From: an uncultured archaeon
GTDB lineage: Archaea; Asgardarchaeota; Lokiarchaeia; Sigyniarchaeales; Promethearchaeaceae
Reading direction: 5' to 3'
Length of the DNA: 20,599 bases
NCBI GenBank assembly: GCA_964513765.1
Contig: CAZEPC010000034.1
Coordinates: 1-20,599, forward strand
Shown here: positions 2,512-20,599 of the stretch, in pieces
Layout of the letters: every line of letters begins with the position of its first letter
How positions within the stretch are numbered: position 1 is the first letter of the stretch
Notes under the pieces: generated by a model
Told to the model about the DNA's origin: nothing
What the model saw: the letters and a program-made list of their open reading frames with translations, nothing else
The model's database searches: none
Translations under genes and position numbers: made by a program

Positions 2512-3414
2512 ATGAATGTTAGAAAAAGAATGTTAGGTGATGACCAAGATGAGATGTGTTGTGAAAACCCTGTACCCGCCTTTAATTCAGACGGGTTAAG
2601 AGTTTGCAAGAACTGCGGAATGGTCATTGGTAACTCGTATATTTCTACGGAAAAAAGAGCTTACACGCACGAAGAGGTTCAGAGAAGAAGACGAACAGAA
2701 CCTAGGTGGCGAAATTATGGTCCACGAACTATCATTGATAGGAATAGTGCGGATGGCAACGGAAATAGTCTAACAGGTCGAAGAAAAGCGTTTTTCAATC
2801 GTCTGTCCAAAATTCAAGGGTCTTTAGTTAATTCTTTAGAGCGAAACTTTTGGGAAGCCCGACCTAAAATCAATCAGCTTGCCCAAAAATTAAATGTACC
2901 TGATCACATAGTTGAAACTTCATGGAAAATATATACGGAAGTAGCCAAACAAAAGCTTACTATGGGGAGAAGCATTGATGGCTTTGTAACCGCTTCCATT
3001 TATGCAGGTATCAGAATTCATAATTTTCCACGATTACTTGAGGAAATTGCTGATGTGGCAATGATGCCCTTAAGAAGTGTGCATAGATCTCTGGGCTTAA
3101 TTGTTAGAAAGGTATTTCCGAAATTGAACCTGAAATACAGTCCAGTTTCTCCTGGCCCTCTTGTATTTCGATTTGGAAATGATCTGAGTTTATCAGTTCA
3201 AGTGCAAAAATCTGCTTCAAGATTATTGGGTCAAGCGATTCGACATGGTCTAAGAAAGATGGGTAAAGATCCAAAAGGTCTGGCTGCGGCGGCACTGTAT
3301 ATGGCGGCAAAACCAACTGATGAAAGGTTAACCCAGAGAGCAATTGCGAAAGTTGCCAGGATAACCGAAGTTACCCTCAGGACGAGAGCCAAACAGATTC
3401 AAGGTAGAATATAA
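2512..3414 (+). CDS. tfb: Transcription initiation factor TFB (TFIIB family), with a divergent N-terminal zinc ribbon
   Basis: Ribbon remnant CC-x14-CKNCGMVI, followed by a TEKRAY block in the position of the TFB EWRAF motif. Then a B-reader/linker region and two cyclin folds. Fold 1: ERNFWEARPKINQLAQKLNVPDHIVETSWKIYTEV...GRSIDGFVTASIYAGIRIHNFPRLLEEIA. Fold 2: GKDPKGLAAAALYMAAKPTDERLTQRAIAKVARITEVTLRTRAKQI. Confidence 0.9.
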   Translation: MNVRKRMLGDDQDEMCCENPVPAFNSDGLRVCKNCGMVIGNSYISTEKRAYTHEEVQRRRRTEPRWRNYGPRTIIDRNSADGNGNSLTGRRKAFFNRLSKIQGSLVNSLERNFWEARPKINQLAQKLNVPDHIVETSWKIYTEVAKQKLTMGRSIDGFVTASIYAGIRIHNFPRLLEEIADVAMMPLRSVHRSLGLIVRKVFPKLNLKYSPVSPGPLVFRFGNDLSLSVQVQKSASRLLGQAIRHGLRKMGKDPKGLAAAALYMAAKPTDERLTQRAIAKVARITEVTLRTRAKQIQGRI

Positions 3415-3576: not shown

Positions 3577-4443
3577 ATGGCGTTCATTGTATTTGTGTAT
3601 AGTTTTGATGACGGGAAATGGCTTGAGGCAGAGCAACTATTCCTTCATGATATTGCCCTTTTATTAGATCGAGATAAAAAAGAAGCCTATTTTTGGACGG
3701 GTTCGAGGGCTAAGGAATCAGAAATCGAGGTTGCGTTCCAGAAAGCGAATACCATGATGAATAAATTCAAACTTTATGAATTTGTTGCTCTTGGTGAATC
3801 CACTATTCCTTTAAAGGTTCAGAAGGAGATTGATGTTTTACTTGGAGATAATGCCGATCCTTCAAAGATTAAGGTAGAGAGAACTACCTCTATGCAATTA
3901 TTTTATGTGTTTGGCATTTTGGGAATCTTAAGTTCTTTAGCACTGCTAATAAATAACCTAAGGATGCTATCATGGAGCACCCCCGAATATTATGAAACAT
4001 CCCCAAAATCATTTAATTCACTATTTGAGATATCTTCAATAATTGGCCTGGTTGTATTGGGACTCTTTCTAATTCAATTTATATCATCTATCTTTTCAGG
4101 GAAGATTTTCCTAATGGTTTGTTCCTTAACCAGTTGGGCGATCATGGTTGGTACTTTCTTTTACTTGGCAGAGGGAGAGTTAATTTTTAATTTTGTTCCC
4201 AGCTTTGATGAAAATTTATATTTAATAGAGAGAAGTGCTATGACAAAACATATTTTATGGGTTGTGTTTGCATTCTTAGTAAGCAGTATGGTTAATATTA
4301 TTTCCATAATTATTGTCTTTAAACAATCTGAAATTGTTGAGGATGAAGGAATGGATATCTCTGAGATGGAACGAAAATCTAAACCGTCAATATTGCGGGA
4401 TAGAGAGTCTAAATTACAGAAAATAAGTCCCCCGCCTCAATAA
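3577..4443 (+). CDS. Membrane protein: N-terminal gelsolin/villin-like domain fused to a 4-TM C-terminal domain
   Basis: Residues 1-90 read FIVFVYSFDDGKWLEAEQLFLHDIALLLDRDKKEAYFWTGSRAKESEIEVAFQKANTMMNKFKLYEFVALGESTIPLKVQKEI. This follows the gelsolin-repeat pattern (hydrophobic strand, x-D-x-hydrophobic-LLD, short turn, aromatic-W-x-G-x-x-A/S-x-x-E, helix, then a conserved acidic residue, here GE where gelsolin has EG-x-E). Four hydrophobic helices follow: LFYVFGILGILSSLALLI, IIGLVVLGLFLIQFISSIF, IFLMVCSLTSWAIMVGTFFYL, ILWVVFAFLVSSMVNIISIIIVF. The tail is charged. The CDS itself is solid; the domain call is by-eye inference. Confidence 0.5.
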   Translation: MAFIVFVYSFDDGKWLEAEQLFLHDIALLLDRDKKEAYFWTGSRAKESEIEVAFQKANTMMNKFKLYEFVALGESTIPLKVQKEIDVLLGDNADPSKIKVERTTSMQLFYVFGILGILSSLALLINNLRMLSWSTPEYYETSPKSFNSLFEISSIIGLVVLGLFLIQFISSIFSGKIFLMVCSLTSWAIMVGTFFYLAEGELIFNFVPSFDENLYLIERSAMTKHILWVVFAFLVSSMVNIISIIIVFKQSEIVEDEGMDISEMERKSKPSILRDRESKLQKISPPPQ

Positions 4444-4503
4444 ACTTTCCTATTTTTATCATTTTTTAAAAAACAAATTCTAAATTCACGGGCTAAGATT
4501 TTT

Positions 4504-5544
4504 ATGATAAACTATCAACGATTCTGGTCAAAACATCTGAAAAATAAGGTAAAAATGGCCAATGAAGCAATTAAAACTAAGAACTTCACCCGTATCGAAG
4601 AAATCTTGGAAGATTTAATTACCCTGTTAAAGGACACCAAAAATATTAATTGGAAAGATAGGGTGGCTATTTGTTTTATATTGGAACAAATGGCTGCAGT
4701 GGATCCTTTGATGGATAATATCGTTGATGGTCTCATGGAGGTTCTGGAAAATGAAAAAGACCCCCATGTAAAGGAGTTTGCGGTTTGGGCTTTGGGTGAG
4801 ATTGTCGAGAAAGCTCAATCTTTGGAATTAATTAAACTCACAATGCCAGTCATTATGAAATTCTTAAACGACGATTCGGAACAGGTGAGGTCTTTTGCGA
4901 ATGATTTACATTCAAGGTTTAAAGAAGTTTTAAAAGAAAAACAAGAGATAAACGAAAAAATAAGCAATCAAAGAGATAAATTAATGTCTCTTATTGAAGG
5001 AAGCTTAGATGATGTTGAAGAAAGGAGTAAAAATATTTCTAAAGATGCGCTAAGCTTGGATTATAAAACTGCTCATGAACGACAAGATGAATTCCGGAGA
5101 AGGATCGCTGAATTTAAACAGAAAAATCAAGAGTTAGAAGATGAAATTTTAGAACTTGATGAACAATTGATTGAAGAGGTGGGCCCCTTTAAGGGGGAAA
5201 GTCTTGAGATTATCCGCTATTGGCGTAAAGAAAGGGCAAAGAAAGAGGATTTAATTAGAAGGGTTGAATGTATTTTACGTATTCAATCAAAAATTTGGAA
5301 AATTATTCAATTTATCACCTCTCTATCACCTGATGAAAATTTGAAAATTGATCAAATTAAAGAAATTACCAAAAAAACTGGGAGACCGTACTCTGAAAAA
5401 GAAGTTATTGAGATTCTTCAAAAATTGGTGGATGAAGAAATAGTTCCAACTTTTATGCTTGATCAAATTAAGGATTATCAAATTAAAGCCAAGGAATATG
5501 CCCAAAGCAACGGAGAGGGAAATCGGGAAGAACGAGATCTATGA
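4504..5544 (+). CDS. HEAT-repeat / coiled-coil / C-terminal winged-helix-like protein (function unknown)
   Basis: HEAT-like units: DPHVKEFAVWALGEIVEKA and DDSEQVRSFANDL. A long heptad-rich K/E/Q segment spans aa ~140-220. The C-terminus IDQIKEITKKTGRPYSEKEVIEILQKLVDEEIV looks wHTH-like. An alternative start at 4555 (MANEAIK) is preceded by AAGGT. Confidence 0.6.
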   Translation: MINYQRFWSKHLKNKVKMANEAIKTKNFTRIEEILEDLITLLKDTKNINWKDRVAICFILEQMAAVDPLMDNIVDGLMEVLENEKDPHVKEFAVWALGEIVEKAQSLELIKLTMPVIMKFLNDDSEQVRSFANDLHSRFKEVLKEKQEINEKISNQRDKLMSLIEGSLDDVEERSKNISKDALSLDYKTAHERQDEFRRRIAEFKQKNQELEDEILELDEQLIEEVGPFKGESLEIIRYWRKERAKKEDLIRRVECILRIQSKIWKIIQFITSLSPDENLKIDQIKEITKKTGRPYSEKEVIEILQKLVDEEIVPTFMLDQIKDYQIKAKEYAQSNGEGNREERDL

Positions 5545-6593
5545 TAATCCGAAAAAAACACAAGATATTATTTATTCTCCTATTTATTTTAACCATTTTT
5601 ATTTTTTATATTAATTTTTCATGGGGAAATCCCGTATGGAATTCTTTTTCCCTGGCAATAATGAGTTCCATCCTCATTTTTCTCACTTTTGCATTTTTTT
5701 GGGAGCTAAATGATTTTTGGCAATTTCGATGGCATAGAATGGAAACATCCCAAGTCAATATTAAGAAAATGAAAATTCCGTTGGCAGAAAACTCTTCTCT
5801 ATACGGAGAATATATCACAGAAAAATCTTATAACGAACATCAAAATTCAAATCAAATTGAAAAGGAAAATAGACCGTTGGTTATTTTTATTCATGGATTT
5901 TCAGATAATTCAGTATTGGATCGGTATATTACAATCCCTTTATCCCTCAATGGATTTGAGGTCTTATCTTACGACAATCGGGGCACCAAGCGATCTTCTA
6001 ATGCGGGAAGCAAATCTGATTTCATGAAAATAGTAAAGGATTTGGGAGTTGTGCTTGATTTTGTGCAATCGGATAAAAAAATGAGGGAAAAAGATCTTTA
6101 TCTGGTTGGTCTTAGCCTAGGGGCGATTTCGGCTATATTCCAAGGGTTGAAACATCCGTTCATTAAAAAGATTATTGCCGTTTCTGCAATGGCTCAATAC
6201 AATACCATCTTACCAAAATCTCCTGTTCCTTTTAAAGGAAAATGGTGGTTGTGGTTGCGATATAGGTTATTAGGTGTGCCAACCAATCCCAAAGATAGGA
6301 TTAACCAAATTCTTTCACCATTTTATCAGGTAAAAGAAAAAAGAAAAGAATTTCTTTCAAAAAGACAGAACACAGAAAAGGCTAAAAAAGAATGGAAAGA
6401 ATATATTAACCAGAAACTCTTTTTAATACATTCCAAAAATGATAAAGTTGTTCCTTATCAGCACTTTAAAAGAAATGTTAAGATTACTCAAATTAATAAT
6501 AATAATACTTTCGTGGTTGATGCTGGGGGCCATAATTTTGTAAAGTGTGAACCTAGTTTAATTGCCAAAATTATAAATTTCCTAAATCGATAG
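5541..6593 (+). CDS. Membrane-anchored alpha/beta-fold hydrolase (serine esterase/lipase/peptidase superfamily)
   Basis: Two N-terminal TM helices: ILFILLFILTIFIFYI and LAIMSSILIFLTFAFFW. Oxyanion-region block VIFIHGFSDN, nucleophile elbow G-L-S-L-G (LVGLSLGAISA), acid-residue block IHSKNDKVVP and His block DAGGHNF. The start ATG overlaps the upstream stop (ATGA at 5541-5544). Confidence 0.8.
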   Translation: MIIRKKHKILFILLFILTIFIFYINFSWGNPVWNSFSLAIMSSILIFLTFAFFWELNDFWQFRWHRMETSQVNIKKMKIPLAENSSLYGEYITEKSYNEHQNSNQIEKENRPLVIFIHGFSDNSVLDRYITIPLSLNGFEVLSYDNRGTKRSSNAGSKSDFMKIVKDLGVVLDFVQSDKKMREKDLYLVGLSLGAISAIFQGLKHPFIKKIIAVSAMAQYNTILPKSPVPFKGKWWLWLRYRLLGVPTNPKDRINQILSPFYQVKEKRKEFLSKRQNTEKAKKEWKEYINQKLFLIHSKNDKVVPYQHFKRNVKITQINNNNTFVVDAGGHNFVKCEPSLIAKIINFLNR

Positions 6594-7604: not shown

Positions 7605-7967
7605 CTAAAAACCGAATTTATCGTTAGGGGCAACAATTATTTTTCCTCTATTGAGCTTGGATATGGATCCTCCGTGCTGAAGACAATATTTTTTGATAAG
7701 ATTCAATTGTTTTTGAAGAGGTCTCCTATCTTTCGTGGGACCATTTGCTAAATTTACCAAATTGTTTAAATTTACGATCATTATATTTCCATTTAGCAAT
7801 TCATGTCTCAGCAGCATGAAATCTCTATTTGATTTTATTTTAATTTGTTTAATAAAGATTCTTTTCTCAAGATCAGGTACATTAAGATTTCCATCGTCCA
7901 AGGCAGCATCTCTGTCTTCCTTGTTCCTTTTTTTATCCTTTGATTTAGTCCATGAAAATAGTCCCAT
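7605..7967 (-). CDS. sepF: SepF-like cell-division protein (FtsZ membrane anchor, DUF552 fold)
   Basis: The N-terminal amphipathic MGLFSWTKSK resembles a membrane-targeting helix, and a charged linker follows. The core is IFIKQIKIKSNRDFMLLRHELLNGNIMIVNLNNL...LIKKYCLQHGGSISKLNRGKIIVAPNDKF. This is collinear with the SepF pattern (strand, helix, x-G-x-hydrophobic-VNL, ..., GG-x-I-x-K/R-hydrophobic, ..., hydrophobic-x-P-x-N/D). Confidence 0.6.
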   Translation of the reverse strand: MGLFSWTKSKDKKRNKEDRDAALDDGNLNVPDLEKRIFIKQIKIKSNRDFMLLRHELLNGNIMIVNLNNLVNLANGPTKDRRPLQKQLNLIKKYCLQHGGSISKLNRGKIIVAPNDKFGF

Positions 7968-9327: not shown

Positions 9328-12300
9328 TTATTCTGATTTTTCTGTTGTGAATTTGGTATTTAACACCATACTGCACCCATATTTTCCATTCTTGCAGACC
9401 CCAATTACTTTATCTGCCAATTGTATGAGAGTTTTAGACTTGTCGGGCATAAGAATCATAAATTGATATCCATTTTTAGTAAGGTTATGGATAAGTTTGG
9501 CCACAGTTTGTGCATTATCGGGATCCAAAAACATTTCTATTTCATCATAAATATTAAACGGGGATGGATTCAATTGATTTAAGGAAAGCATTAAACAAAT
9601 CCCAACCATTGACCTTTGACCGCCGGATAAACCCGAAAGCTTTCGAGTGACAGGCTCCCCGGAAGGGGTATGGAATGTTGTATTGATGGCCACACCAAGC
9701 TCTTTAATCCCACCTTGCAATTCAATATTAGCAGAGAATCCCAATTCCGCTTCCGTAAATTTGTCATTAATCTGTTTTTCAAGATTTACTAATGATTTCG
9801 AATATTTTGTATAATATTTATCCTCAAAATTTTGTTCCGTGTTTTTTGCGGCCTCTATCTCCTCTAAAATCTCGCTCTTTTTATCAGAAATAATCTTTAT
9901 GGTTTCCTTTAATTCATGTCTTTTCTTAAAGAGGCTTCGGTCTACATCTCTATACTCTTGAAGTTCTTTATTTTTCTTGTCAATTTCTTCTTGAATTTCC
10001 TCTAAGCTCCTTTCCGATTTCAATTTCTTTTTATTATCCGCCTCTTGGATTTTCTTTCGAATCCTTTCCAGCTTTCCTTCTTTTTCTTGAATATAATCAC
10101 GAAAATTTTGGGTATCTGTTTGAATTTTATATAATTCTAAGGAGAGCTGTTCTTTTTCTTTGACTTTCTCTTTTTTTTCATCCTCTATCTCTTTGATCTC
10201 ATCCTTAATGGCCCCCAACTCATTTTCTAAATCCTCTATCTCATCGGTGAGCTTCATATTTTTATTGATAAGTTTCATAAAATTACTGTCCATATTTTCA
10301 AGCTTCCTCATGAGATCGGTTTTTTTCTCTTCTAAAAATTTCAATGTTGTTTTTGCTGTTATGAGTTTATTATTTACATCTTGTAGTTGTTCATTGTTAT
10401 TTTCTTTCGTGGTGATAAATTCTTCCAAATCATTCTTAATTGCTTTAATTTCTTCGGGGATTTCATTTAATCTTTTTTGATCTTGATAGATATCTTTGGG
10501 TAAATCAGCTTTAATATTTTCGAGATCTTTTTCAATTTTCTCTAACTCTTCTTCAATGGCATTTATCTCATCATAAAGACTCTCTCTTTTATCTATATAG
10601 CTGTCCTTCGTGTTACTATGAATTTCCATCTTTTTAAACTTATTTAGAAGCATTCCTAAAGATCTTAATCTTTTATCAATTTTCTTACCTTTTTCCTCTA
10701 AATTTTTCTTTTTTTCCATTCTTTGGTTGTATAACTTGCGGTTTTTAGAGGCTTCCTCCTCTAATTTTTTCAGATATTGCTTGGTTTCTGCTACACTAGA
10801 AAAGCTGAATGAACCTTTCTTTTTTATAAAGGGCCGTGATTCAATTACAAGGTTCTTGGGTCTGATCTGTTCCCCATCTAACGTCACAATCCAACCTTTG
10901 TAATTGTATTTTTGGATATAATTGGTGCCCACCACATTATCTTTTACCACCAGGGTATTTTTTGCCCTAGAATGGACAACTTTTTCAATTGCTGGATCTT
11001 TGTGGAGTATTCGAATTTTATTTACTAAATAACCTAAGATACCTTGCTGGCCAGCATTTTTTGGTTCGGAGAGTTTTCTTACCTTCCGGTTTCTCTCCAT
11101 ATAAATATTGATTCTCGCACCACAATCTTGTGCGATTCTCTTGAGCCGATAGAATGCCTCATTATTTCTAGCAATAAAGCTATACAATACATGATAGCCA
11201 AAAATTGACTTAATTGCCTGTTGGAATATATCGTTGAAAGAAATGTAATCTATAAGGGGTCCAACACATTTATGATGCATATTTCTTTCTCTAATTGTTT
11301 GCATCATTTTTTGAATAGATTTTGGTTTTGGCATATCTTTACTGTACACAGATTTTTTAACTTCATCCATTTTTTTGGTTATTTGTGTATATTTGTCTTG
11401 GAGGTGATCCAAATCATCCTCGAGAATATTGATGGTATTCCGGTATTTCTTAGATGCTTTTTCATATTTTTCCTTCAAATCCTCGCTGGGATTTTTCATA
11501 AACCATTTATAATCCTCTAATTCATGCCGAATTTTCTTGATATCCGCCAATTTATTGTTAATCTTTTCTTCATATCCCTTGTGTTTTTTCTCATTTTCTT
11601 TTTTCTTTGTTTGGAGACTTTCTTTTAGTTGCTTCTTTTTCTCTAAATCTAAGATGAGATCTTGATACTTTTGTGATTTTTTAATTATTTCCTGTTGTTC
11701 ATTTTCTAATGTTTCGATGGAATTTTCCGAGGAATCTATGGATTTTTGGATTTTTTTTATTTTTTCCTCCAATTTATCATATTCAATCTGGAAAGCTTGG
11801 ACTTCTTCTCTTTTTTCATGGATTTTTTCCTTGGATTCATTTATCTTTTTTCCGATATCATTTTTTTCCTGGTTGTATTTTTTAACCTTATTTTCAATGA
11901 CTCCCTTTTCTGCTTTCTTTTCGGAAATTTCCTCAAAGAGATCCTCATTATTTGATTTTTTTTCTCCTAAGTCTAATTCAAAATCTTTGATCTCTTTTTC
12001 AATTTTAAGGATTTTTTGTTGTGTTTCATTAATTTTATTTTGGTTATCCTTAATTTTCTTTTCATATTTATGAATTTTCTTTAAGATATTTTTCCTCTGG
12101 ACCCACAAGAGTTCATTTTTCAGTCCCTCAACCTCTTTTTCCAGTTTGAGTTTTTCTTTTAATTTTCGGATTTTGGGTTTTAGGGATAAAATTTGGAACT
12201 GAAGATTTTTCTTTCGCGCTTCAAGTGCCTCATGATCCCTTTTCAATTCTTCGACCTTATTTTTCTGATCCAAGATCCTTTTTCTAAGGGTTGATAATCC

Positions 12301-12843
12301 AATACCCCCTTCAATAAAATCACATAAGGTTTTCTCATCAAAATCCTTAATCTTATCTATGTTTCCTTGTGACATAAAACAGAAAATATTCTCGGGTGAA
12401 ATTCCAATTTCATCCACAAATTTTACTATTTTGCTGCTGGTGGATCTTTTAAATTCTTCCTCTCCCGGTTGCTTAAAATAAAATGAAGGGCTACTTTTTC
12501 GGTGAACCCTTCGCTTAATTCCATATTTTTTTCCATCAACATCAATAAAAAGCTCCACATAGGCAGCGTTTTCCCCGTCCCGAATAAATTCGGACCATTT
12601 GGTATATCTTCCATCATAATTATTGCTTCCAAGTGCAAACTTGATGGATTGATAGATTGAACTTTTTCCTGCACCATTTGGCCCATAAGCAATCGTGAAT
12701 TTGGGATGGAGTATGATTTCTTCATAATCGAAGGATAGAAAATTATTTGCCACAATCTTCGTAATTTTGATTTTTTGTGGTTTTAGACCATCTCCGGTTG
12801 AATTAAAAAGACTTTCCGATATTGAATCTTGAATTTTTTCCAT
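9328..12843 (-). CDS. smc: SMC-family chromosome-organisation ATPase (1171 aa)
   Basis: Walker A is YGPNGAGKSS (nt 12661-12684) and the Q-loop is FMSQGNI. Two long K/E-rich coiled-coil arms flank a globular hinge at aa ~505-685, with no CxxC zinc hook: CVGPLIDYISFNDIFQQAIKSIFGYHVLYSFIARNNEAFYRLKRIAQDCGARINIY...WIVTLDGEQIRP. The signature motif is LSGLSGGQRS (9616-9630) and Walker B/D-loop is PFNIYDEIEMFLD (9523-9558). GAGGAG lies 13 nt upstream of the ATG. Confidence 0.9.
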   Translation of the reverse strand: MEKIQDSISESLFNSTGDGLKPQKIKITKIVANNFLSFDYEEIILHPKFTIAYGPNGAGKSSIYQSIKFALGSNNYDGRYTKWSEFIRDGENAAYVELFIDVDGKKYGIKRRVHRKSSPSFYFKQPGEEEFKRSTSSKIVKFVDEIGISPENIFCFMSQGNIDKIKDFDEKTLCDFIEGGIGLSTLRKRILDQKNKVEELKRDHEALEARKKNLQFQILSLKPKIRKLKEKLKLEKEVEGLKNELLWVQRKNILKKIHKYEKKIKDNQNKINETQQKILKIEKEIKDFELDLGEKKSNNEDLFEEISEKKAEKGVIENKVKKYNQEKNDIGKKINESKEKIHEKREEVQAFQIEYDKLEEKIKKIQKSIDSSENSIETLENEQQEIIKKSQKYQDLILDLEKKKQLKESLQTKKKENEKKHKGYEEKINNKLADIKKIRHELEDYKWFMKNPSEDLKEKYEKASKKYRNTINILEDDLDHLQDKYTQITKKMDEVKKSVYSKDMPKPKSIQKMMQTIRERNMHHKCVGPLIDYISFNDIFQQAIKSIFGYHVLYSFIARNNEAFYRLKRIAQDCGARINIYMERNRKVRKLSEPKNAGQQGILGYLVNKIRILHKDPAIEKVVHSRAKNTLVVKDNVVGTNYIQKYNYKGWIVTLDGEQIRPKNLVIESRPFIKKKGSFSFSSVAETKQYLKKLEEEASKNRKLYNQRMEKKKNLEEKGKKIDKRLRSLGMLLNKFKKMEIHSNTKDSYIDKRESLYDEINAIEEELEKIEKDLENIKADLPKDIYQDQKRLNEIPEEIKAIKNDLEEFITTKENNNEQLQDVNNKLITAKTTLKFLEEKKTDLMRKLENMDSNFMKLINKNMKLTDEIEDLENELGAIKDEIKEIEDEKKEKVKEKEQLSLELYKIQTDTQNFRDYIQEKEGKLERIRKKIQEADNKKKLKSERSLEEIQEEIDKKNKELQEYRDVDRSLFKKRHELKETIKIISDKKSEILEEIEAAKNTEQNFEDKYYTKYSKSLVNLEKQINDKFTEAELGFSANIELQGGIKELGVAINTTFHTPSGEPVTRKLSGLSGGQRSMVGICLMLSLNQLNPSPFNIYDEIEMFLDPDNAQTVAKLIHNLTKNGYQFMILMPDKSKTLIQLADKVIGVCKNGKYGCSMVLNTKFTTEKSE

Positions 12844-12863: not shown

Positions 12864-14636
12864 TTATTTTATATCTGTAACGATATTAATATGTAAGATT
12901 TTTTCAATTCTTACCTTCGCATCATTTAATTTCTTTAAAGCTAACTCGGGATCAACCTTCAGCAAAAAAGGGTAATCTGCCAACGTTTTTCTATCTATTT
13001 CATGTAATATATGTCCTTTTTTCAATTTATCAAGGGCAATGCTGATATTTTGGTAGTCTTTAGAGGCTGCATCCAGATACATTTGGTTTTCAAATTCTTT
13101 CACCGTAGAGGGGAAGATATTGCCCCCATCAAGGGAATCAATGGTTTTCTCGTCCTTAATAATACCAAATGATCGTTCCGTTTTAGATCTGCTCTCTTTT
13201 TTAGAATTCCTTGAAGCTTTTCTCCATTGAAAATCTTGTTTCTCAATTAAATTTTGTAAGAATGAAGTATCTAAGTTCAGTTCTTCTGTCGGATTTTTAA
13301 ATTGCTCTAAATTCTTGTTCAAGATAACCTTTTTTACAAAACCTCTTATATCAGCTAAACCACAATCTTCGATGTTAAGTGAAATTTGTTCAAAATCGAC
13401 TTGTTGATATAAGTTCTTCTTACTATACTGTTCAAAACAAAACTCTAAAAATTCGCTGCGGATTTTTTGGTTAGGATCTTGTATATCTAATTTTACATAC
13501 TCACTTTCTACCATTTCATAGTCTTGTTTATTTTGTTTCAGATCCTGTAGAATGATTATGAGATTTAATTTTTGGATATCAATTTTACTAATTTTCTCCA
13601 ATAAGGAGGAGATAAAAAAATGTTTGGAGAAAAACTGTCCGTTTTCTAAAACCTGATTGGGAATTTGGTCGATAATGTTTGAGTATTCTATGAGAGGAAT
13701 ATAGAGTAGAAATAGATCCTTTTGATATTCTTTGTCATATTGAGTATTTTCCTTTTGGACTTTGTTTTTAATTTTGTTGTTTTTTTGAAGAAAGATTTTA
13801 GAAATTTTCCTTTCTAGATACTCTAAATTTTGGAAGATTCTTGAAAAGAAATTTGTGAAGTTTAAAGTATAGCTCTCTATTCCATTTATCGCAGAATAAG
13901 AACGTAAAAATCTTTGAATTTCATGCCCCCGGGAGCTAAAAAGTATTATTTTCGGTTTGTACCATTGAGATAGATCATCAAAATTTTCATCCCATTTTCT
14001 CTTTTTTTCAATCTGAGATCTTTCTCTGCCCTTTGTTTTTTCCTCATTTAAACGAGGGGTGTTTTTTTCCGTATTATCTTCTTCTTCATTCTCCGGAATT
14101 TCTTTCTGTCTTTTTTCTTTTTTCTTTTTATTCTTTTGATTTTTACCCTCTGAATCTTTGATTTGATCTTTTCCATCTAGGTTATCTTTATAATTTTCCT
14201 CTTGTTCACTTTTCTTTTCATCTTCTTTAGGCTCCTCCCTTTTAAAATCTTCTCTATTAGGTCCTTGCTTTTTAAGACTTAATTTATTTGTATTCGAGTT
14301 AATCTGCTCCTTTTTGAGAAATCTCTGGGATATTTCAAGAATATTGTATAAATCTTCATAAAGGGGAAAATACCCTTTTATTGAATAATCCACGTTCATA
14401 GAGTTATTATAAAGGAGATTGAGAATCTCTCTTTCTCTATTTTGTTGATTTTTACTAAGATTTGTTCGTGATTGACCACTATGATGTTTGTATATTAAGG
14501 TTTTTGCATTTTTTTCTTTCTCCATAGAAAAATCCATGGTATTTTCTTGTAATTCAACCTTTCCCTTTTTTTCTTTTTCAGATTTCTTATTTGATCCATC
14601 TTGGGATTCTGTCGGACCCTTCTCCTTTTTGTTCAT
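12864..14636 (-). CDS. Degenerate (pseudo-)AAA ATPase-fold protein with an N-terminal helical region and a ~110-aa K/E/N-rich disordered linker; first gene of the SMC operon
   Basis: Residues ~226-440 are collinear with a classical AAA module, but the catalytic motifs are lost. KPKIILFSSRGHEIQRFLRSYSAINGIESYTLNFTNFFSRIF stands in for the consensus PKGVLL-x-GPPGTGKT-x-LAKAVA...F. DLFLLYIPLIEYS replaces hhhhDEID. LNLIIILQDL...VKLDIQDPNQKIRSEFLEF...VDFEQISLNIEDCGLADIRGFVKKV stands in for the consensus sensor/lid region i-x-x-P-D-x-x-x-R-x-x-I-L...G-x-S-G-A-D-I. The linker (aa ~105-215) is EEPKEDEKKSEQEENYKDNLDGKDQIKDSEGKNQKNKKKKEKRQKEIPENEEEDN. Confidence 0.55.
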   Translation of the reverse strand: MNKKEKGPTESQDGSNKKSEKEKKGKVELQENTMDFSMEKEKNAKTLIYKHHSGQSRTNLSKNQQNREREILNLLYNNSMNVDYSIKGYFPLYEDLYNILEISQRFLKKEQINSNTNKLSLKKQGPNREDFKREEPKEDEKKSEQEENYKDNLDGKDQIKDSEGKNQKNKKKKEKRQKEIPENEEEDNTEKNTPRLNEEKTKGRERSQIEKKRKWDENFDDLSQWYKPKIILFSSRGHEIQRFLRSYSAINGIESYTLNFTNFFSRIFQNLEYLERKISKIFLQKNNKIKNKVQKENTQYDKEYQKDLFLLYIPLIEYSNIIDQIPNQVLENGQFFSKHFFISSLLEKISKIDIQKLNLIIILQDLKQNKQDYEMVESEYVKLDIQDPNQKIRSEFLEFCFEQYSKKNLYQQVDFEQISLNIEDCGLADIRGFVKKVILNKNLEQFKNPTEELNLDTSFLQNLIEKQDFQWRKASRNSKKESRSKTERSFGIIKDEKTIDSLDGGNIFPSTVKEFENQMYLDAASKDYQNISIALDKLKKGHILHEIDRKTLADYPFLLKVDPELALKKLNDAKVRIEKILHINIVTDIK

Positions 14637-16406: not shown

Positions 16407-19400
16407 TTAGGCTTTCTTCAGCTCTTCAAGCTTTTTAAACTGTTTTTGGGCTTCCTTCATTTTATTTATATTATCTAAGGAGGCGAAAGCCTCAAGAGCC
16501 TCGTTGAGCATTTGTTTAGCATTTTCGAAATCTCTTCTAAATGTGTGGATTTTTCCCAATTGTAAATAGCAATCGGGGGTGAAGAATTCATTGGGTGCTA
16601 AATCTATAGCGGTTTCGAAAGATTTAATGGCGTAATCAATAAATTTTGGCTCTTCCTTTTGGTGCATGAAGATCATCCCTTGATCATAAAATTGCTTTCC
16701 ATCGGGAGAGTAGGACTTTGCGAAGAAAGTCGAATAATATTGGAGAAGTGGATTTTGTTCTTCGAAATATCCTTTGAAGCTTATTAAGGAATCGATCCTA
16801 TCAATAGTTTCCAATATCTCTGTGTCATAATTACTATAATATGCTTGTTCCAAGAGATCTTTTATAGTTAAAAGCAATTTATTGTTTTTCTCTTGTTCAA
16901 CAAACAAGAATGCCGGAAGGAGATCTTGGAGGGAATCGGAGATCTCATTCATAACCACCGTAGGAACACCCTTTAGTTGGATGGCTTCGATTAAAATTAT
17001 GATAATATTCCCAATTGTAAATTGCTCCTTTTCTGAGAATCGTAACCAAGAAATTTGGTTATAAAATTGCTCATTCTCGATGACTCTTTTAGCATTTCCT
17101 CTTTTTATCATCCCCTCTCCAATTTTATAGAGTGCTTTTGCAATAACATCCTTGGCATATACATTTGTATCTCCTATTAATGCTTGTTGAAGGGTGATTA
17201 CAATTTCATTGGAAGGGTGGGAGGATCCTATGTTTCCCAAGCTTTCCGCGTAGAGTTCCACTTCCGAGATATTCTCTTTTTTGGTTCTGTCCAGATGGAA
17301 AAATCCATTAATTAGTGCTTCTATAATGAGATCTGCCACTTCAATTTTCTTCCCAATGAGCCCTAACGCATATATTGTTTGGAGTCTGATTTGGATTCTT
17401 TCATCTTTCAACATTTTAATAATCTTATTGAGATTTATTTCATTATAACGCCTTTGGCCGATCATTCCTAAGGCAAAAACAGCATTTTCTCTTACTTTAG
17501 GATCCTGATGGGAAAGTAAATCATATAGCATCGTAAGATCTACTTCTTTATGGATTTCGTCATTCATCAATCCCAAGGCCTCTGTCAAATCTCTAGTGAC
17601 CTCCAGATTCTTTCCCTTTATATGTGTTTCGAGGATATCATATATATTTTCCTTTGAGGTAGGTCCGATTGCTTTGATCGCTTCACTGGCCCTATTTTTT
17701 ACTTCGGTATTTTCATCCCCCAATTTATCGAGATAGAATTGGAGAACACTCATAGATTGCCCATCAATTTTTATTTTTTCAAATCCTTTTTCTTCATTCA
17801 TAACCAAGAATTCAGAGATGCTCTCAATGGCCATTTCCCTTACATCCTCATCTGCATCATCTATCGAAATTTTTATTAAAATTTCTAAAATTCGTTCTTT
17901 CTCTGAATGGAGGACTTCCTCGCTTTTATTTTTTGGACTCAATAGAATGTAATTTCCAATGGCATCACAGGCCACATATCGAATATAAGGCTCAGCATCA
18001 TCCAAATAATTTATGACTTTTTGTAACGGGAATGATTCCAAGTTATAATAGACACAATACGCGATAATGTTTAGGGAATATTGAATGACAAATTGAATTG
18101 CAGAATGGTTTAAATTTTCAAATTCCCCAGTTTCTTTCTTATATTCTAAAAATGGGTATATTTTTTCCAAGGAAATCTGTTTTGGAACCTTTGCAGTTAA
18201 ATTTAAAATAGTTTCCAAGGCATTTTCCACGATTTCTTCATTCATAGAATTTTCTTCTAAGATTCTATACAGAAATTCTAAGGCAATGGAAACGAATTCA
18301 TTGTCGTTGTAGTCTCCCTCGATTATCATTTCTGTTATTGCGTCACTAGCCCGTTTCCTTAAATCGAAATCCTTAGAAGTCATAAAAATGCCCAATTTTT
18401 TGAGGATTTTCGATATGTTTTTCTTTCCTTCCCCAATATCTCCTATTGCGTCAAAAATGGCTTTTTGCATTTGAGGTTCGGATTTTGAGATTGCACTTAT
18501 AAGCCTTTGCATTATTAATTTTGGATGTTCTTGCCCTATTTGCCCTAATAACTGGACTCCCTCCTTGCTAAAGAAAACCCTCTGAATATCTAGCTTTACG
18601 CGCATTTTGATGAGAGTTCTGTCCAATTTTTCAAAAATCCTAGCCAATAAAGAGAGGTTTTTAATATTTTCTGGGCTGTATTCAATTGTGTTTTGGGCAA
18701 CTACCTCCACAATTTTTTTAGCTCTATCCTCATCCTCATAGGCAGCCAGATAAAGATATTGCTGTGATTTTTTTCGAACACTTTTATGAAGATCCACTCC
18801 ATTTTTATCAAAGAGTGGATATAATAACACGGACTTCACCAATATGTCCAAATCCTTAATATTTACCGTTTCAATTTTTTTCTCTTTTCTTTTTGCTTTT
18901 TGTAACTCATCGATTGAACGTAATCCAAAAGACCTATTTACTGAATTAAGCTTAAGATCCGCGTGGAAATCAGTATTTCTATTAATCAATAAATATCCTC
19001 CAAAAAACACCATTATGAATCCTTGAGTAGAAATTAAGGGTAATGTAATCAGAGGATCCGAAAAGAGGGTGTTTAAGGGTTGAAGTATGCTATACCGACT
19101 TAGAATTGCATTTAATAAGTTTGGCGCGATTACCGAAAAATTGATGAGTATATTAATGCTAATTGCAATAAAAATCCAAACCGAAAACATAAAATCTATT
19201 GTTTTTGTTTTACTTTTTTTACGCCAATATTTGGAAAAGAACCCATATACAGCAAAAATAACTTGTATGCAGAGGGTTATGAATGAAATAATTGAAAAAC
19301 CCGTATCAAGTGTCTCCCCTTGTCTTAAACTCATTCCTTTTGAAATCGAAGAATATATTGTGTAGAATCCCGAAATAAATGGGATCCATGCAATTAGAAT

Positions 19401-20084
19401 CGTAAAAATATGGATTATTTTCTTAAAAAAATCCTTTAGGCTGTTGGAATTCTTCTGTTTTGTAATGTATCTCTCTTCTCGGGGATCGATATGGAGTTGA
19501 TGGCTATACGTGGTTGAGATAATTCCTGCAATTTGACCTGAGGCCGAAAATGTACTAAGGAATATCAAGGGAATAAAAGCAAACCATAGATAAAGCATTT
19601 CCACGAAAGTTTTATCCAAAAAATAATAGAGAATGAATACTGGTACAAAGTAGATGATAAGGAATACTCCAAATGAAGCAATATATGATTTTTTTCCCTT
19701 GAATCTGTCTAAAAATTTCTCTTCCAGCTTTTTATCAAAATTTGTGGTTGCATCAGATGTCGGTCTGGCTAAGACTGTTGCATTATACACAGGAAAAGCC
19801 ATCAACATCAAAATTAAAAAGATTATCATAAATTGTATAAAATTTGTGCCAGATAGATCATTTGGCCGAAAGACGCCATAGAAAAGATTAATGAGCACGA
19901 CCCAAACCGCGGAAAAAATCCCAGCAAATATTATACAAGTTCCGATATCTTCGACATTGAATTTCTCCCGTTCAATTAAATTAACCTTTTTGAGATTTCC
20001 GTATACCAATAAAAATCCCACAATAAATGATATAACAGCGGCGGTAATAGAGAGTATCAGTACAAAATCTGAAATATCTACCAT
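16407..20084 (-). CDS. Large polytopic membrane protein: ~9-10 N-terminal TM helices, a long array of PBS-lyase-type HEAT repeats and a C-terminal TPR-like module
   Basis: The first ~375 aa are dominated by hydrophobic helices, for example FVLILSITAAVISFIVGFLLVY, CIIFAGIFSAVWVVLINLFY and FIQFMIIFLILMLMAFPVY. HEAT units: DFDLRKRASDAITEM, EPYIRYVACDAIGNY, DEDVREMAIESI, NTEVKNRASEAIKAIG, DPKVRENAVFALGMIG, DERIQIRLQTIYALGLIG. The C-terminus is YAIKSFETAIDLAPNEFFTPDCYLQLGKIHTFRRDFENAKQMLNEALEAF. The ATG overlaps the upstream stop (TAATG at 20082-20086). Confidence 0.75.
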   Translation of the reverse strand: MVDISDFVLILSITAAVISFIVGFLLVYGNLKKVNLIEREKFNVEDIGTCIIFAGIFSAVWVVLINLFYGVFRPNDLSGTNFIQFMIIFLILMLMAFPVYNATVLARPTSDATTNFDKKLEEKFLDRFKGKKSYIASFGVFLIIYFVPVFILYYFLDKTFVEMLYLWFAFIPLIFLSTFSASGQIAGIISTTYSHQLHIDPREERYITKQKNSNSLKDFFKKIIHIFTILIAWIPFISGFYTIYSSISKGMSLRQGETLDTGFSIISFITLCIQVIFAVYGFFSKYWRKKSKTKTIDFMFSVWIFIAISINILINFSVIAPNLLNAILSRYSILQPLNTLFSDPLITLPLISTQGFIMVFFGGYLLINRNTDFHADLKLNSVNRSFGLRSIDELQKAKRKEKKIETVNIKDLDILVKSVLLYPLFDKNGVDLHKSVRKKSQQYLYLAAYEDEDRAKKIVEVVAQNTIEYSPENIKNLSLLARIFEKLDRTLIKMRVKLDIQRVFFSKEGVQLLGQIGQEHPKLIMQRLISAISKSEPQMQKAIFDAIGDIGEGKKNISKILKKLGIFMTSKDFDLRKRASDAITEMIIEGDYNDNEFVSIALEFLYRILEENSMNEEIVENALETILNLTAKVPKQISLEKIYPFLEYKKETGEFENLNHSAIQFVIQYSLNIIAYCVYYNLESFPLQKVINYLDDAEPYIRYVACDAIGNYILLSPKNKSEEVLHSEKERILEILIKISIDDADEDVREMAIESISEFLVMNEEKGFEKIKIDGQSMSVLQFYLDKLGDENTEVKNRASEAIKAIGPTSKENIYDILETHIKGKNLEVTRDLTEALGLMNDEIHKEVDLTMLYDLLSHQDPKVRENAVFALGMIGQRRYNEINLNKIIKMLKDERIQIRLQTIYALGLIGKKIEVADLIIEALINGFFHLDRTKKENISEVELYAESLGNIGSSHPSNEIVITLQQALIGDTNVYAKDVIAKALYKIGEGMIKRGNAKRVIENEQFYNQISWLRFSEKEQFTIGNIIIILIEAIQLKGVPTVVMNEISDSLQDLLPAFLFVEQEKNNKLLLTIKDLLEQAYYSNYDTEILETIDRIDSLISFKGYFEEQNPLLQYYSTFFAKSYSPDGKQFYDQGMIFMHQKEEPKFIDYAIKSFETAIDLAPNEFFTPDCYLQLGKIHTFRRDFENAKQMLNEALEAFASLDNINKMKEAQKQFKKLEELKKA

Positions 20085-20503
20085 TATTCGATTTCCTCCA
20101 TATTTTTCACTTTATTCTGAATAGTTTTTACGGTTTCTAAGGATATAGTTTGGTTTTCTTCCTCTTTTTCTTCGTGAATTTTCTTTATTGCGTAAAAAAT
20201 TTCATTTTGATCCGTTTCTCGTAGCATTTTATAATTAGTATAGCCTGCCTCCCATAATAAATTGGCAATATAAATATTTATCCCGTCAATTCTAAGGAGA
20301 TTTATATATTTAAGAAATTCTCTGTAATCGCTTCTGCTCATATTCAGTATTTTTCTCCTTAATCCCTTGATCATATCTTTCCGATACACAAAATCTTCTA
20401 TTGTGTAAATCCCGAATTTTCCGAGATCGGATGCTTGGTCAACCGAAAATCCAGGTATCAGAACGAGAGGGATTGCACTTCCATATTTAGATTTTTTAAC
20501 CAT
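20084..20503 (-). CDS. Small protein with two helix-hairpin-helix-like units (DUF4332-like)
   Basis: LIPGFSVDQASDLGKFGIYTIEDF and LLRIDGINIYIANLLWEAGYTNYKMLRETD both fit the DUF4332/HhH pattern (L-x-x-I-x-G-I-x...L-x-x-x-G-I-x-T-x-x-D-L). The tail is acidic. The track ORF starts at a TTG (20506); the adjacent ATG at 20503 is preferred. Confidence 0.5.
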   Translation of the reverse strand: MVKKSKYGSAIPLVLIPGFSVDQASDLGKFGIYTIEDFVYRKDMIKGLRRKILNMSRSDYREFLKYINLLRIDGINIYIANLLWEAGYTNYKMLRETDQNEIFYAIKKIHEEKEEENQTISLETVKTIQNKVKNMEEIE

Positions 20504-20599
20504 CAATTTTGCGTAATATATCCACTCGCCGATCTGTGAGAATGTGGGATATTGGAGTAATATTAAATAAGTTTCTGTATCTAATTTTTTTAATTTATA

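Follow-up and report, generated by a model that had tools for sequence, protein, structure and literature searches.

GelTM is a 288-residue protein encoded on a 20,599-nucleotide stretch of DNA from an uncultured archaeon of the Promethearchaeaceae (contig CAZEPC010000034.1 of assembly GCA_964513765.1, analysed over its whole length and called the window here). Amino acids (aa) 1 to ~95 are a true gelsolin-repeat domain, and the rest of the protein consists of four transmembrane (TM) helices and a charged C-terminal tail; this fusion is undescribed within the literature searched and forms a fourth, membrane-integrated Asgard gelsolin architecture, to be added to the three used in models of gelsolin/cofilin evolution. 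By analogy with characterized relatives, and with modest confidence, GelTM is taken to be an actin-membrane anchor, in which a ProGel-type head would be held at the inner membrane face. Asgard cells crawl and form protrusions filled with actin, and the actin regulators described from them (profilins, ProGel, GelX and 2DGel) are all soluble. The GelTM family provides a specific, clonable candidate for the link between Lokiactin filaments and the membrane, with orthologues in both of the cultured species checked.

The N-terminal gelsolin domain

The string in which the original prediction recognized the gelsolin pattern, LHDIALLLDRDKKEAYFWTGSRAKESEIEVAFQKA, is located at residues 23-57. When full-length GelTM is searched alone against Pfam no family is matched, and its N-terminal fragment yields just a sub-threshold match to DUF7904 over residues 31-60; the DUF7904 model is of gelsolin type, as it matches one repeat of the canonical villin P0090 at 7e-20. 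A phmmer search of the PDB with the single sequence returned no gelsolin, just PsbZ noise on a TM helix. These single-sequence results favor a reading in which the resemblance is spurious, the open reading frame (ORF) does not correspond to a gene, or the domain is extracellular; such a reading is considered very improbable, as it is opposed by 90 conserved full-length homologues, by gelsolin profile E-values that reach the 1e-18 range, by a high-confidence gelsolin fold predicted with no template from an alignment free of gelsolin sequences, and by a strong positive-inside bias that puts the domain in the cytoplasm.

Family profiles give a clear assignment. A profile of four N-domains matched 34 sequences in the PDB, 33 of which are villin, gelsolin, adseverin, CapG or Asgard gelsolins. 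The profile of 67 N-domains matched villin at 8.5e-18, gelsolin at 3e-13, ProGel (7c2f_B; a 94-residue, single-domain protein from Thorarchaeota) at 1.1e-7, the Loki 2DGel at 1.2e-5 and the single-domain adseverin A3 at 1.1e-4; with E-values of 8.5e-18 to 1e-7 against gelsolin-family chains, and with 36 of its 38 PDB matches in the gelsolin superfamily, the resemblance is well above chance. Counts of conservation, charge and Pfam matches refer to a 69-member alignment of the family; PF00626 (Gelsolin) is the commonest Pfam match when these full-length members are scanned singly (21/69, best 3.7e-4). The full-length family profile also recovered the canonical villin P0090 at E 5.5e-4 from 1.84 billion proteins searched, and hhalign of the N-domain profile with this villin gave E 1.5e-4 and a probability of 51%, which is supportive though weak taken alone. 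GelTM contains one gelsolin-like domain.

The main structure model was calculated by AlphaFold2 without templates from the 69-member family alignment, which contains no canonical gelsolins; it has a mean predicted local distance difference test score (pLDDT) of 93.7 and a predicted TM-score (pTM) of 0.80, with pLDDT of 83-98 per 10-residue block in the N-domain. The domain is modelled with strands at residues 5-11, 14-17, 26-31, 36-41 and 68-71, a long helix at 47-63 and a shorter helix at 79-93, so that the central β-sheet between a long and a shorter helix that defines the gelsolin fold is present. A Foldseek search of the PDB returned gelsolin-family chains as its first 41 matches, all at a probability of 1.00; the best is actin-bound ProGel (7c2f_B), with a TM-score of 0.76 (normalised to ProGel), 2.6 Å and 87/88 columns. 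A shallow model from five sequences has an N-domain pLDDT of 50-78, and ProGel is still its top Foldseek match. The gelsolin fold, which the original prediction had put forward as a claim open to refutation, is upheld by the profile matches, the AlphaFold2 model and Foldseek together.

The gelsolin β-sheet core is the most conserved part of GelTM, with a mean entropy of 2.08 bits versus 2.7-3.1 bits elsewhere. Asp25 and Gly42 are invariant (69/69), and W15 (60), E17 (61), L21 (59) and Y38 (60) are conserved in most members; the W40 column holds Trp in 53/69, Tyr in 10 and Phe in 4, and the D31 column Asp in 52/69, Asn in 11 and Glu in 4. Both the 'DWG' motif (D31, W40 and G42) and the 'EV' strand motif that contains E17 are conserved in the family, the former being the mark that separates gelsolins from cofilins (Akil et al. 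2020, PMC7444086). In the alignments from the four-sequence profile, D25 stands opposite the Asp that all villin and gelsolin repeats conserve. The type-2 Ca2+ ligands of gelsolin G1, D66 and E97, presumably fall at D25, in the strand before the LD motif, and at residue 49, where the long helix starts (nine after the Trp), respectively. Across the 69 members residue 49 is not conserved (K18, E8, L8, R7, D6 and others); the family thus has the invariant Asp of a type-2 site together with a variable Glu position. Because the Glu ligand is not conserved, any interaction of GelTM with actin is probably not switched by calcium; judged from its sequence, the protein is probably calcium-independent like ProGel and 1DGelX, and unlike 2DGel.

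Membrane bundle, topology and C-terminal tails

The ORF begins MAFIVFVY and encodes 288 aa followed by a stop codon at 4441-4443. The features of the gene, all on the forward strand of the window, are as follows.

3577..4443 (+): complete membrane-integrated gelsolin-domain gene (GelTM), 288 aa and stop; ORF listing, full-length homologues at 1e-139 to 1e-10, and the model at pLDDT 93.7.
3577..3861 (+): gelsolin/ProGel-like domain, aa 1-95; profile matches to the PDB, Foldseek, PF00626 matches and column counts.
3862..3885 (+): basic juxtamembrane linker, aa 96-103 (SKIKVERT); alignments and charge of the flank before TM1.
3886..3975 (+): TM helix 1, aa 104-133; AlphaFold2 helix with pLDDT >93, hydrophobic segment 105-129.
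3976..4002 (+): predicted extracellular loop 1, aa 134-142; acidic by charge counts, short strand modelled by AlphaFold2 at 139-141.
4003..4170 (+): TM helices 2 and 3, aa 143-174 and 177-198, a hairpin with a basic cytoplasmic turn (SGK); AlphaFold2, hydrophobic segment 145-197.
4171..4230 (+): predicted extracellular loop 3, aa 199-218, with an aromatic motif and short strands; column counts, net acidic charge.
4231..4326 (+): TM helix 4, aa 219-250; AlphaFold2, hydrophobic segment 221-251.
4327..4440 (+): charged cytoplasmic tail, aa 251-288, with two short modelled helices at 261-268 and 271-278; AlphaFold2 pLDDT 73-85, charge counts.
4372..4425 (+): subfamily-specific tail motif, aa 266-283 (RKSKPSILRDRESKLQKI); alignments.
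4453..4467 (+): T5 and T6 tracts, 10-24 nucleotides (nt) past the stop codon; read from the sequence.

Kyte-Doolittle analysis delimits hydrophobic segments at residues 105-129, 145-197 (a two-helix hairpin) and 221-251, and AlphaFold2 places long helices at 104-133, 143-174, 177-198 and 219-250, giving four TM helices; the tail, counted as the 40 residues from position 249, carries 8 K/R and 9 D/E. The layout proposed from the sequence at the outset, an N-terminal gelsolin-like domain followed by four TM helices and a charged tail, was thus found in full by hydropathy, AlphaFold2 and charge counts. The four-helix bundle (aa 104-250) is modelled at pLDDT 93-98. It has no consistent Pfam match across the 69 members and no NCBIfam match above noise; Foldseek found no convincing relative, returning designed bundles at low probability and TARP/CNIH, pannexin and LRRC8 chains at probabilities of 0.2 or lower. 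Neither profiles nor structure place the bundle in a known four-TM family (claudin/TARP, tetraspanin, MARVEL, pannexin/LRRC8 and similar).

The loop charges are strongly asymmetric. Positive residues are concentrated in the flank before TM1 (mean 3.67 K/R per 16.6 residues), in the TM2-TM3 turn of 2-5 residues (1.26 K/R per 5 residues) and in the first 15 residues of the tail (mean 3.74 K/R); loop 1 averages 0.65 K/R per 18.7 residues versus 2.14 D/E, and loop 3 is net acidic with 0.87 K/R per 23.3 residues versus 2.96 D/E. The density of K+R is ~0.24 per residue on the N-domain side versus ~0.04 in loops 1 and 3, a difference of about six-fold. Under the positive-inside rule, these charges in 69 homologues support a topology in which the gelsolin domain and the C-terminal tail face the cytoplasm. 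An extracellular gelsolin domain, which the original prediction had named as counting against its own idea, is rejected on the same charges, which place the domain inside. GelTM also has no signal peptide, since its N-terminus is taken up by the first strand of the gelsolin fold (residues 5-11). On the predicted outer face, loops 1 and 3 make short strands in the AlphaFold2 model, and loop 3 carries the motif G200-x-[FY]-L-F204-x-F206 ... Y215-x-I217 (F204 in 53/69, F206 in 43/69, Y215 in 41/69 and I217 in 52/69); within the bundle, G192 and Y196 are conserved.

The linker and tail vary between subfamilies. Linker residues K99 and R102 are kept in the close subfamily, and the tail consensus of the group to which GelTM belongs is [KR]-x-S-[KR]-P-[ST]-I-L-R-D-[KR]...[LM]-x-[EK]-I; its P270 does not vary among the 14 closest members. 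Other subfamilies have tails of the type PISxKEWxxK...KFSV, end 10 residues past TM4 (YKxFIF; ~25 representatives), or carry RYGTPxIVDLRK; other tails are long and K/P/T-rich. In a distant subfamily (P0037, P0038 and P0069) there is a motif, P-x-I-V-D-L-R-K, that is similar to the one in the GelTM group. P0012, P0040, P0073, P0078 and P0085 have long lysine-rich or K/P/T-repeat tails, that of P0085 comprising nine KPSTTKKPAT-like units and that of P0040 a 130-residue, K/E-rich, helix-like stretch; by analogy, such long basic tails are reminiscent of basic filament- or lipid-binding tails.

There is a loose WH2/LKKT likeness in the linker (KIKV, aa 97-100) and in the tail (SILRD...KLQKI or ELKEI), the tail motif being present in some subfamilies only. 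Gelsolin itself has a C-terminal latch. It may be supposed that GelTM is a two-site regulator, in which the tail motif (RPSILRD...LxEI) or the linker K-x-K-[VI]-x-R-T would serve as a WH2-like second actin site, or that the tail latches onto the gelsolin helix and so inhibits it, as the latch of gelsolin does; in either case the protein would nucleate filaments or gate their growth at the membrane and would not simply tether them. The strict conservation of the tail motif in the Lokiarchaeia subfamily, the similar motif in the three distant members above, and the modelling of the tail as ordered helices agree with this idea, as does the occurrence of a WH2-like LKKT-type motif directly after domain 1 in gelsolin and the Asgard 2DGels (PMC7444086; PMC9433394). 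A motif of this type consists of Leu, two basic residues and Thr or Val, usually after an amphipathic helix (PMC9433394); the tail motif does not fit the resulting L-[KR]-[KR]-[VT] signature, most subfamilies lack it, including the ~25 representatives that end shortly past TM4, and a role in setting the topology, under the positive-inside rule, would account equally well for the basic residues of the linker. The WH2-like or latch reading of the tail is speculation, and a two-site regulator is considered improbable.

Family distribution and genomic neighborhood

The family was defined by an exhaustive hidden Markov model (HMM) search, with representatives clustered at 50% identity and retained at E≤1e-3. 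It comprises 90 cluster representatives, 60 of them at ≤1e-10, nearly all of which are 250-320 aa long and match end to end, from residue 1 to past TM4; word-indexed homologue searches had recovered 4, 3 and 8 relatives, most of them cut off at a contig end or, in the case of P0007, frameshifted. All taxonomically labelled members are Asgard archaea (Lokiarchaeota, Promethearchaeota or Promethearchaeia), and among these members the family is Asgard-restricted. Orthologous loci were sought with the 14 closest members; the species-representative genomes that bear an orthologue include Lokiarchaeum ossiferum B35 (UYP46179.1 / NEF87_002464), Promethearchaeum syntrophicum MK-D1 (QEE14692.1 / DSAG12_00505), three further Promethearchaeum metagenome-assembled genomes and Ca. 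Harpocratesius repetitus. The L. ossiferum and P. syntrophicum orthologues are each annotated as a 'hypothetical protein'.

The shorter members inspected are contig-end fragments or frameshift products. Locus L004 (ENA ERZ25039471 contig_46354) is frameshift-ridden, with peptidase M18, RtcB, HEAT and GelTM genes each split into at least two ORFs; because of these frameshifts in the assembly, the 117-aa P0007 is a truncated call of a full-length GelTM and not a soluble form. Five further proteins of 90-118 aa (P0066, P0071, P0076, P0083 and P0092) match the gelsolin part only, at 1e-8 to 1e-4, and have no hydrophobic segment; none matches the Pfam Gelsolin model at E≤0.01. These proteins may represent soluble, ProGel-like relatives of GelTM.

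Loci of the Lokiarchaeia subfamily are broadly syntenic, in the order RtcB, TFIIB, GelTM, hydrolase, CSD protein, ScpB and SMC, with the TFIIB gene directly upstream of GelTM in 7/7 loci (the window, L001, L002, L004, L005, L006 and L007). The TFIIB homologue of the window (2512..3414, +) has strong cyclin repeats (1.9e-29) and a weak Zn-ribbon (E 0.038). Downstream of GelTM the ORF listing and Pfam show the two neighbors that the original prediction had described as a HEAT/coiled-coil protein and a membrane hydrolase: a protein with HEAT repeats (4504..5544, +) and an alpha/beta hydrolase whose N-terminus is hydrophobic (5541..6593, +). Their genes overlap by 4 nt (ATGA) and so are probably co-transcribed. 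The functional link suggested between these two genes and GelTM is not supported: the HEAT gene follows GelTM only in the closer relatives of the window (L002/L003, L004 and L005), an Eco57I-type methyltransferase stands there instead in L. ossiferum, P. syntrophicum MK-D1 and Ca. Harpocratesius, and the neighborhoods of distant members are unrelated. An operon with the HEAT gene and the hydrolase is rejected on the absence of the HEAT gene from those three loci. The T5 (4453-4457) and T6 (4462-4467) tracts pointed out at first are present after the stop codon; archaeal transcription terminates at oligo-T tracts, and those found here are a plausible candidate for such a terminator. With these tracts and the variable neighborhoods, GelTM looks monocistronic and without a conserved functional partner.

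Several other observations were made in the loci examined. The loci of P0023 (L014:150-1103) and P0040 (L015:8001-9155), from different assemblies, each adjoin a four-gene 2-oxoacid:ferredoxin oxidoreductase (POR) cluster, which could be lineage synteny or more. In the window, a 120-aa ORF (7605..7967, −) has a sub-threshold but end-to-end match to SepF (PF04472, E 2.1e-4, profile positions 1-68/72) and adjoins both the SMC gene (9328..12843, −) and a pair of small ORFs in synteny with ScpB/ScpA-like genes; together the SepF-like, ScpB/ScpA-like and SMC genes look like a chromosome-segregation/division cluster. A 1225-aa HEAT/ARM-repeat protein (16407..20084, −; HEAT_2 8.7e-20, Arm 5.9e-8) is encoded directly downstream of a DUF4332 / helix-hairpin-helix gene (20084..20506, −), and the 590-aa ORF at 12864..14636 (−) has no match in Pfam.

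Actin anchoring and comparison with known gelsolins

Three gelsolin architectures have been described from Asgard archaea, ProGel, 1DGelX and 2DGel, all of them soluble (Akil et al. 2020, PMC7444086); the original prediction, which held that only soluble Asgard gelsolins had been described, agrees with the literature searched. No description of a transmembrane gelsolin in archaea, or of the orthologue accessions, was found in the full-text literature searched, and the word 'transmembrane' is absent from the 2022 paper on Loki and Heimdall 2DGels (PMC9433394). In vitro, all three bind and regulate actin, with weak binding and bundling of filaments in the case of ProGel, and ProGel has been crystallised in the SD1/SD3 cleft of actin (PMC7444086); it is from this biochemistry that actin binding by GelTM is inferred. 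The protein would then present a ProGel-type actin-binding module held against the inner face of the cell membrane, with a head that may bind Lokiactin monomers or the sides or ends of filaments. Filaments would thereby be anchored, capped or seeded at this face independently of calcium, for instance in actin-filled protrusions. Confinement to two dimensions, possibly with oligomerisation of the TM bundle, might offset the low affinity typical of single-domain Asgard gelsolins.

Several points weigh against an actin-anchoring role. Gelsolin G1 and ProGel contact actin mainly through the exposed face of the long helix, and in the GelTM family this face varies more than any other part of the domain (2.93 bits). 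No actin or profilin gene is a conserved neighbor in the loci examined, and the gelsolin-like fold is known as well from proteins, Sec23/24 among them, that are not actin binders. ProGel binds rabbit actin very weakly, with a dissociation constant (Kd) of ~337 µM (PMC7444086). A 2025 preprint on L. ossiferum motility reports five gelsolin-homology proteins in a Lokiactin co-immunoprecipitation, and the orthologue UYP46179.1 is not listed among them, in an experiment whose authors note that membrane proteins are under-represented; GNAMCCOK_02484, the identifier of this orthologue as inferred from the sizes of neighboring genes, is not among the proteome entries listed either, which is uninformative.

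Much the same evidence, the variable helix positions, the co-immunoprecipitation list and neighborhoods without a cytoskeletal hint, would suit a generic cytoplasmic interaction or regulatory module which, by comparison with Sec23/24, serves the membrane domain as part of a channel, transporter, scaffold, or envelope-adhesion or sensing protein; the conserved F204, F206, Y215, I217, G192 and Y196 likewise suggest an independent function for the membrane part. In sequence as in structure, the nearest relatives of the head are gelsolins that do bind actin, ProGel first, and no Sec23/24 chain occurs among the PDB profile matches at E≤1; furthermore, the gelsolin core is the best-conserved part of the protein, and the bundle matches no Pfam or NCBIfam family of transporters or channels and has no convincing Foldseek match. 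A non-actin role is for these reasons regarded as rather unlikely, and actin anchoring is preferred.

An extension of the anchoring proposal, advanced tentatively and thought somewhat doubtful, is that GelTM is the first integral-membrane actin-binding protein known outside eukaryotes, linking the two sides of the membrane in a single polypeptide: the head would grip Lokiactin at the inner face, where it would anchor or seed the filaments of the protrusions, and the conserved aromatic outer loops would contact the envelope, a surface or a partner cell. If true, GelTM would correspond, in primitive form, to the adhesion-to-cytoskeleton linkages of eukaryotes and would predate eukaryogenesis.

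Among eukaryotic proteins, supervillin and ponticulin may be likened to GelTM by role only; supervillin belongs to the villin/gelsolin superfamily and is tightly associated with the plasma membrane as a peripheral, not a transmembrane, protein, ponticulin is a membrane-associated actin binder without a gelsolin domain, and neither is homologous to the TM part of GelTM. The 2DGels and the eukaryotic gelsolin, villin, CapG and adseverin share a homologous repeat and the same strand-helix signature with GelTM; they differ in having 2-6 repeats, conserved type-1/type-2 Ca2+ sites and a WH2-like LKKT motif and in being soluble, whereas GelTM has one repeat and is membrane-embedded. 1DGelX (B35_GelX in L. 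ossiferum) also combines one N-terminal gelsolin domain with a non-gelsolin C-terminal region expected to alter activity or location, and is calcium-independent, as is predicted for GelTM; its domain X is soluble, coiled-coil or disordered and was purified in soluble form, while the extension of GelTM is an integral four-TM bundle, and the L. ossiferum GelTM orthologue UYP46179.1 is distinct from B35_GelX (UYP44381.1). The closest likeness is to ProGel (7c2f chain B), which is both the best structural match and the best single-domain sequence match; each has a single gelsolin/cofilin-type domain of ~90 residues with a DWG motif and without a complete Ca2+ site. At an identity of ~17%, ProGel is a free, soluble lone domain, whereas GelTM adds ~190 residues that form the four TM helices and the tail.

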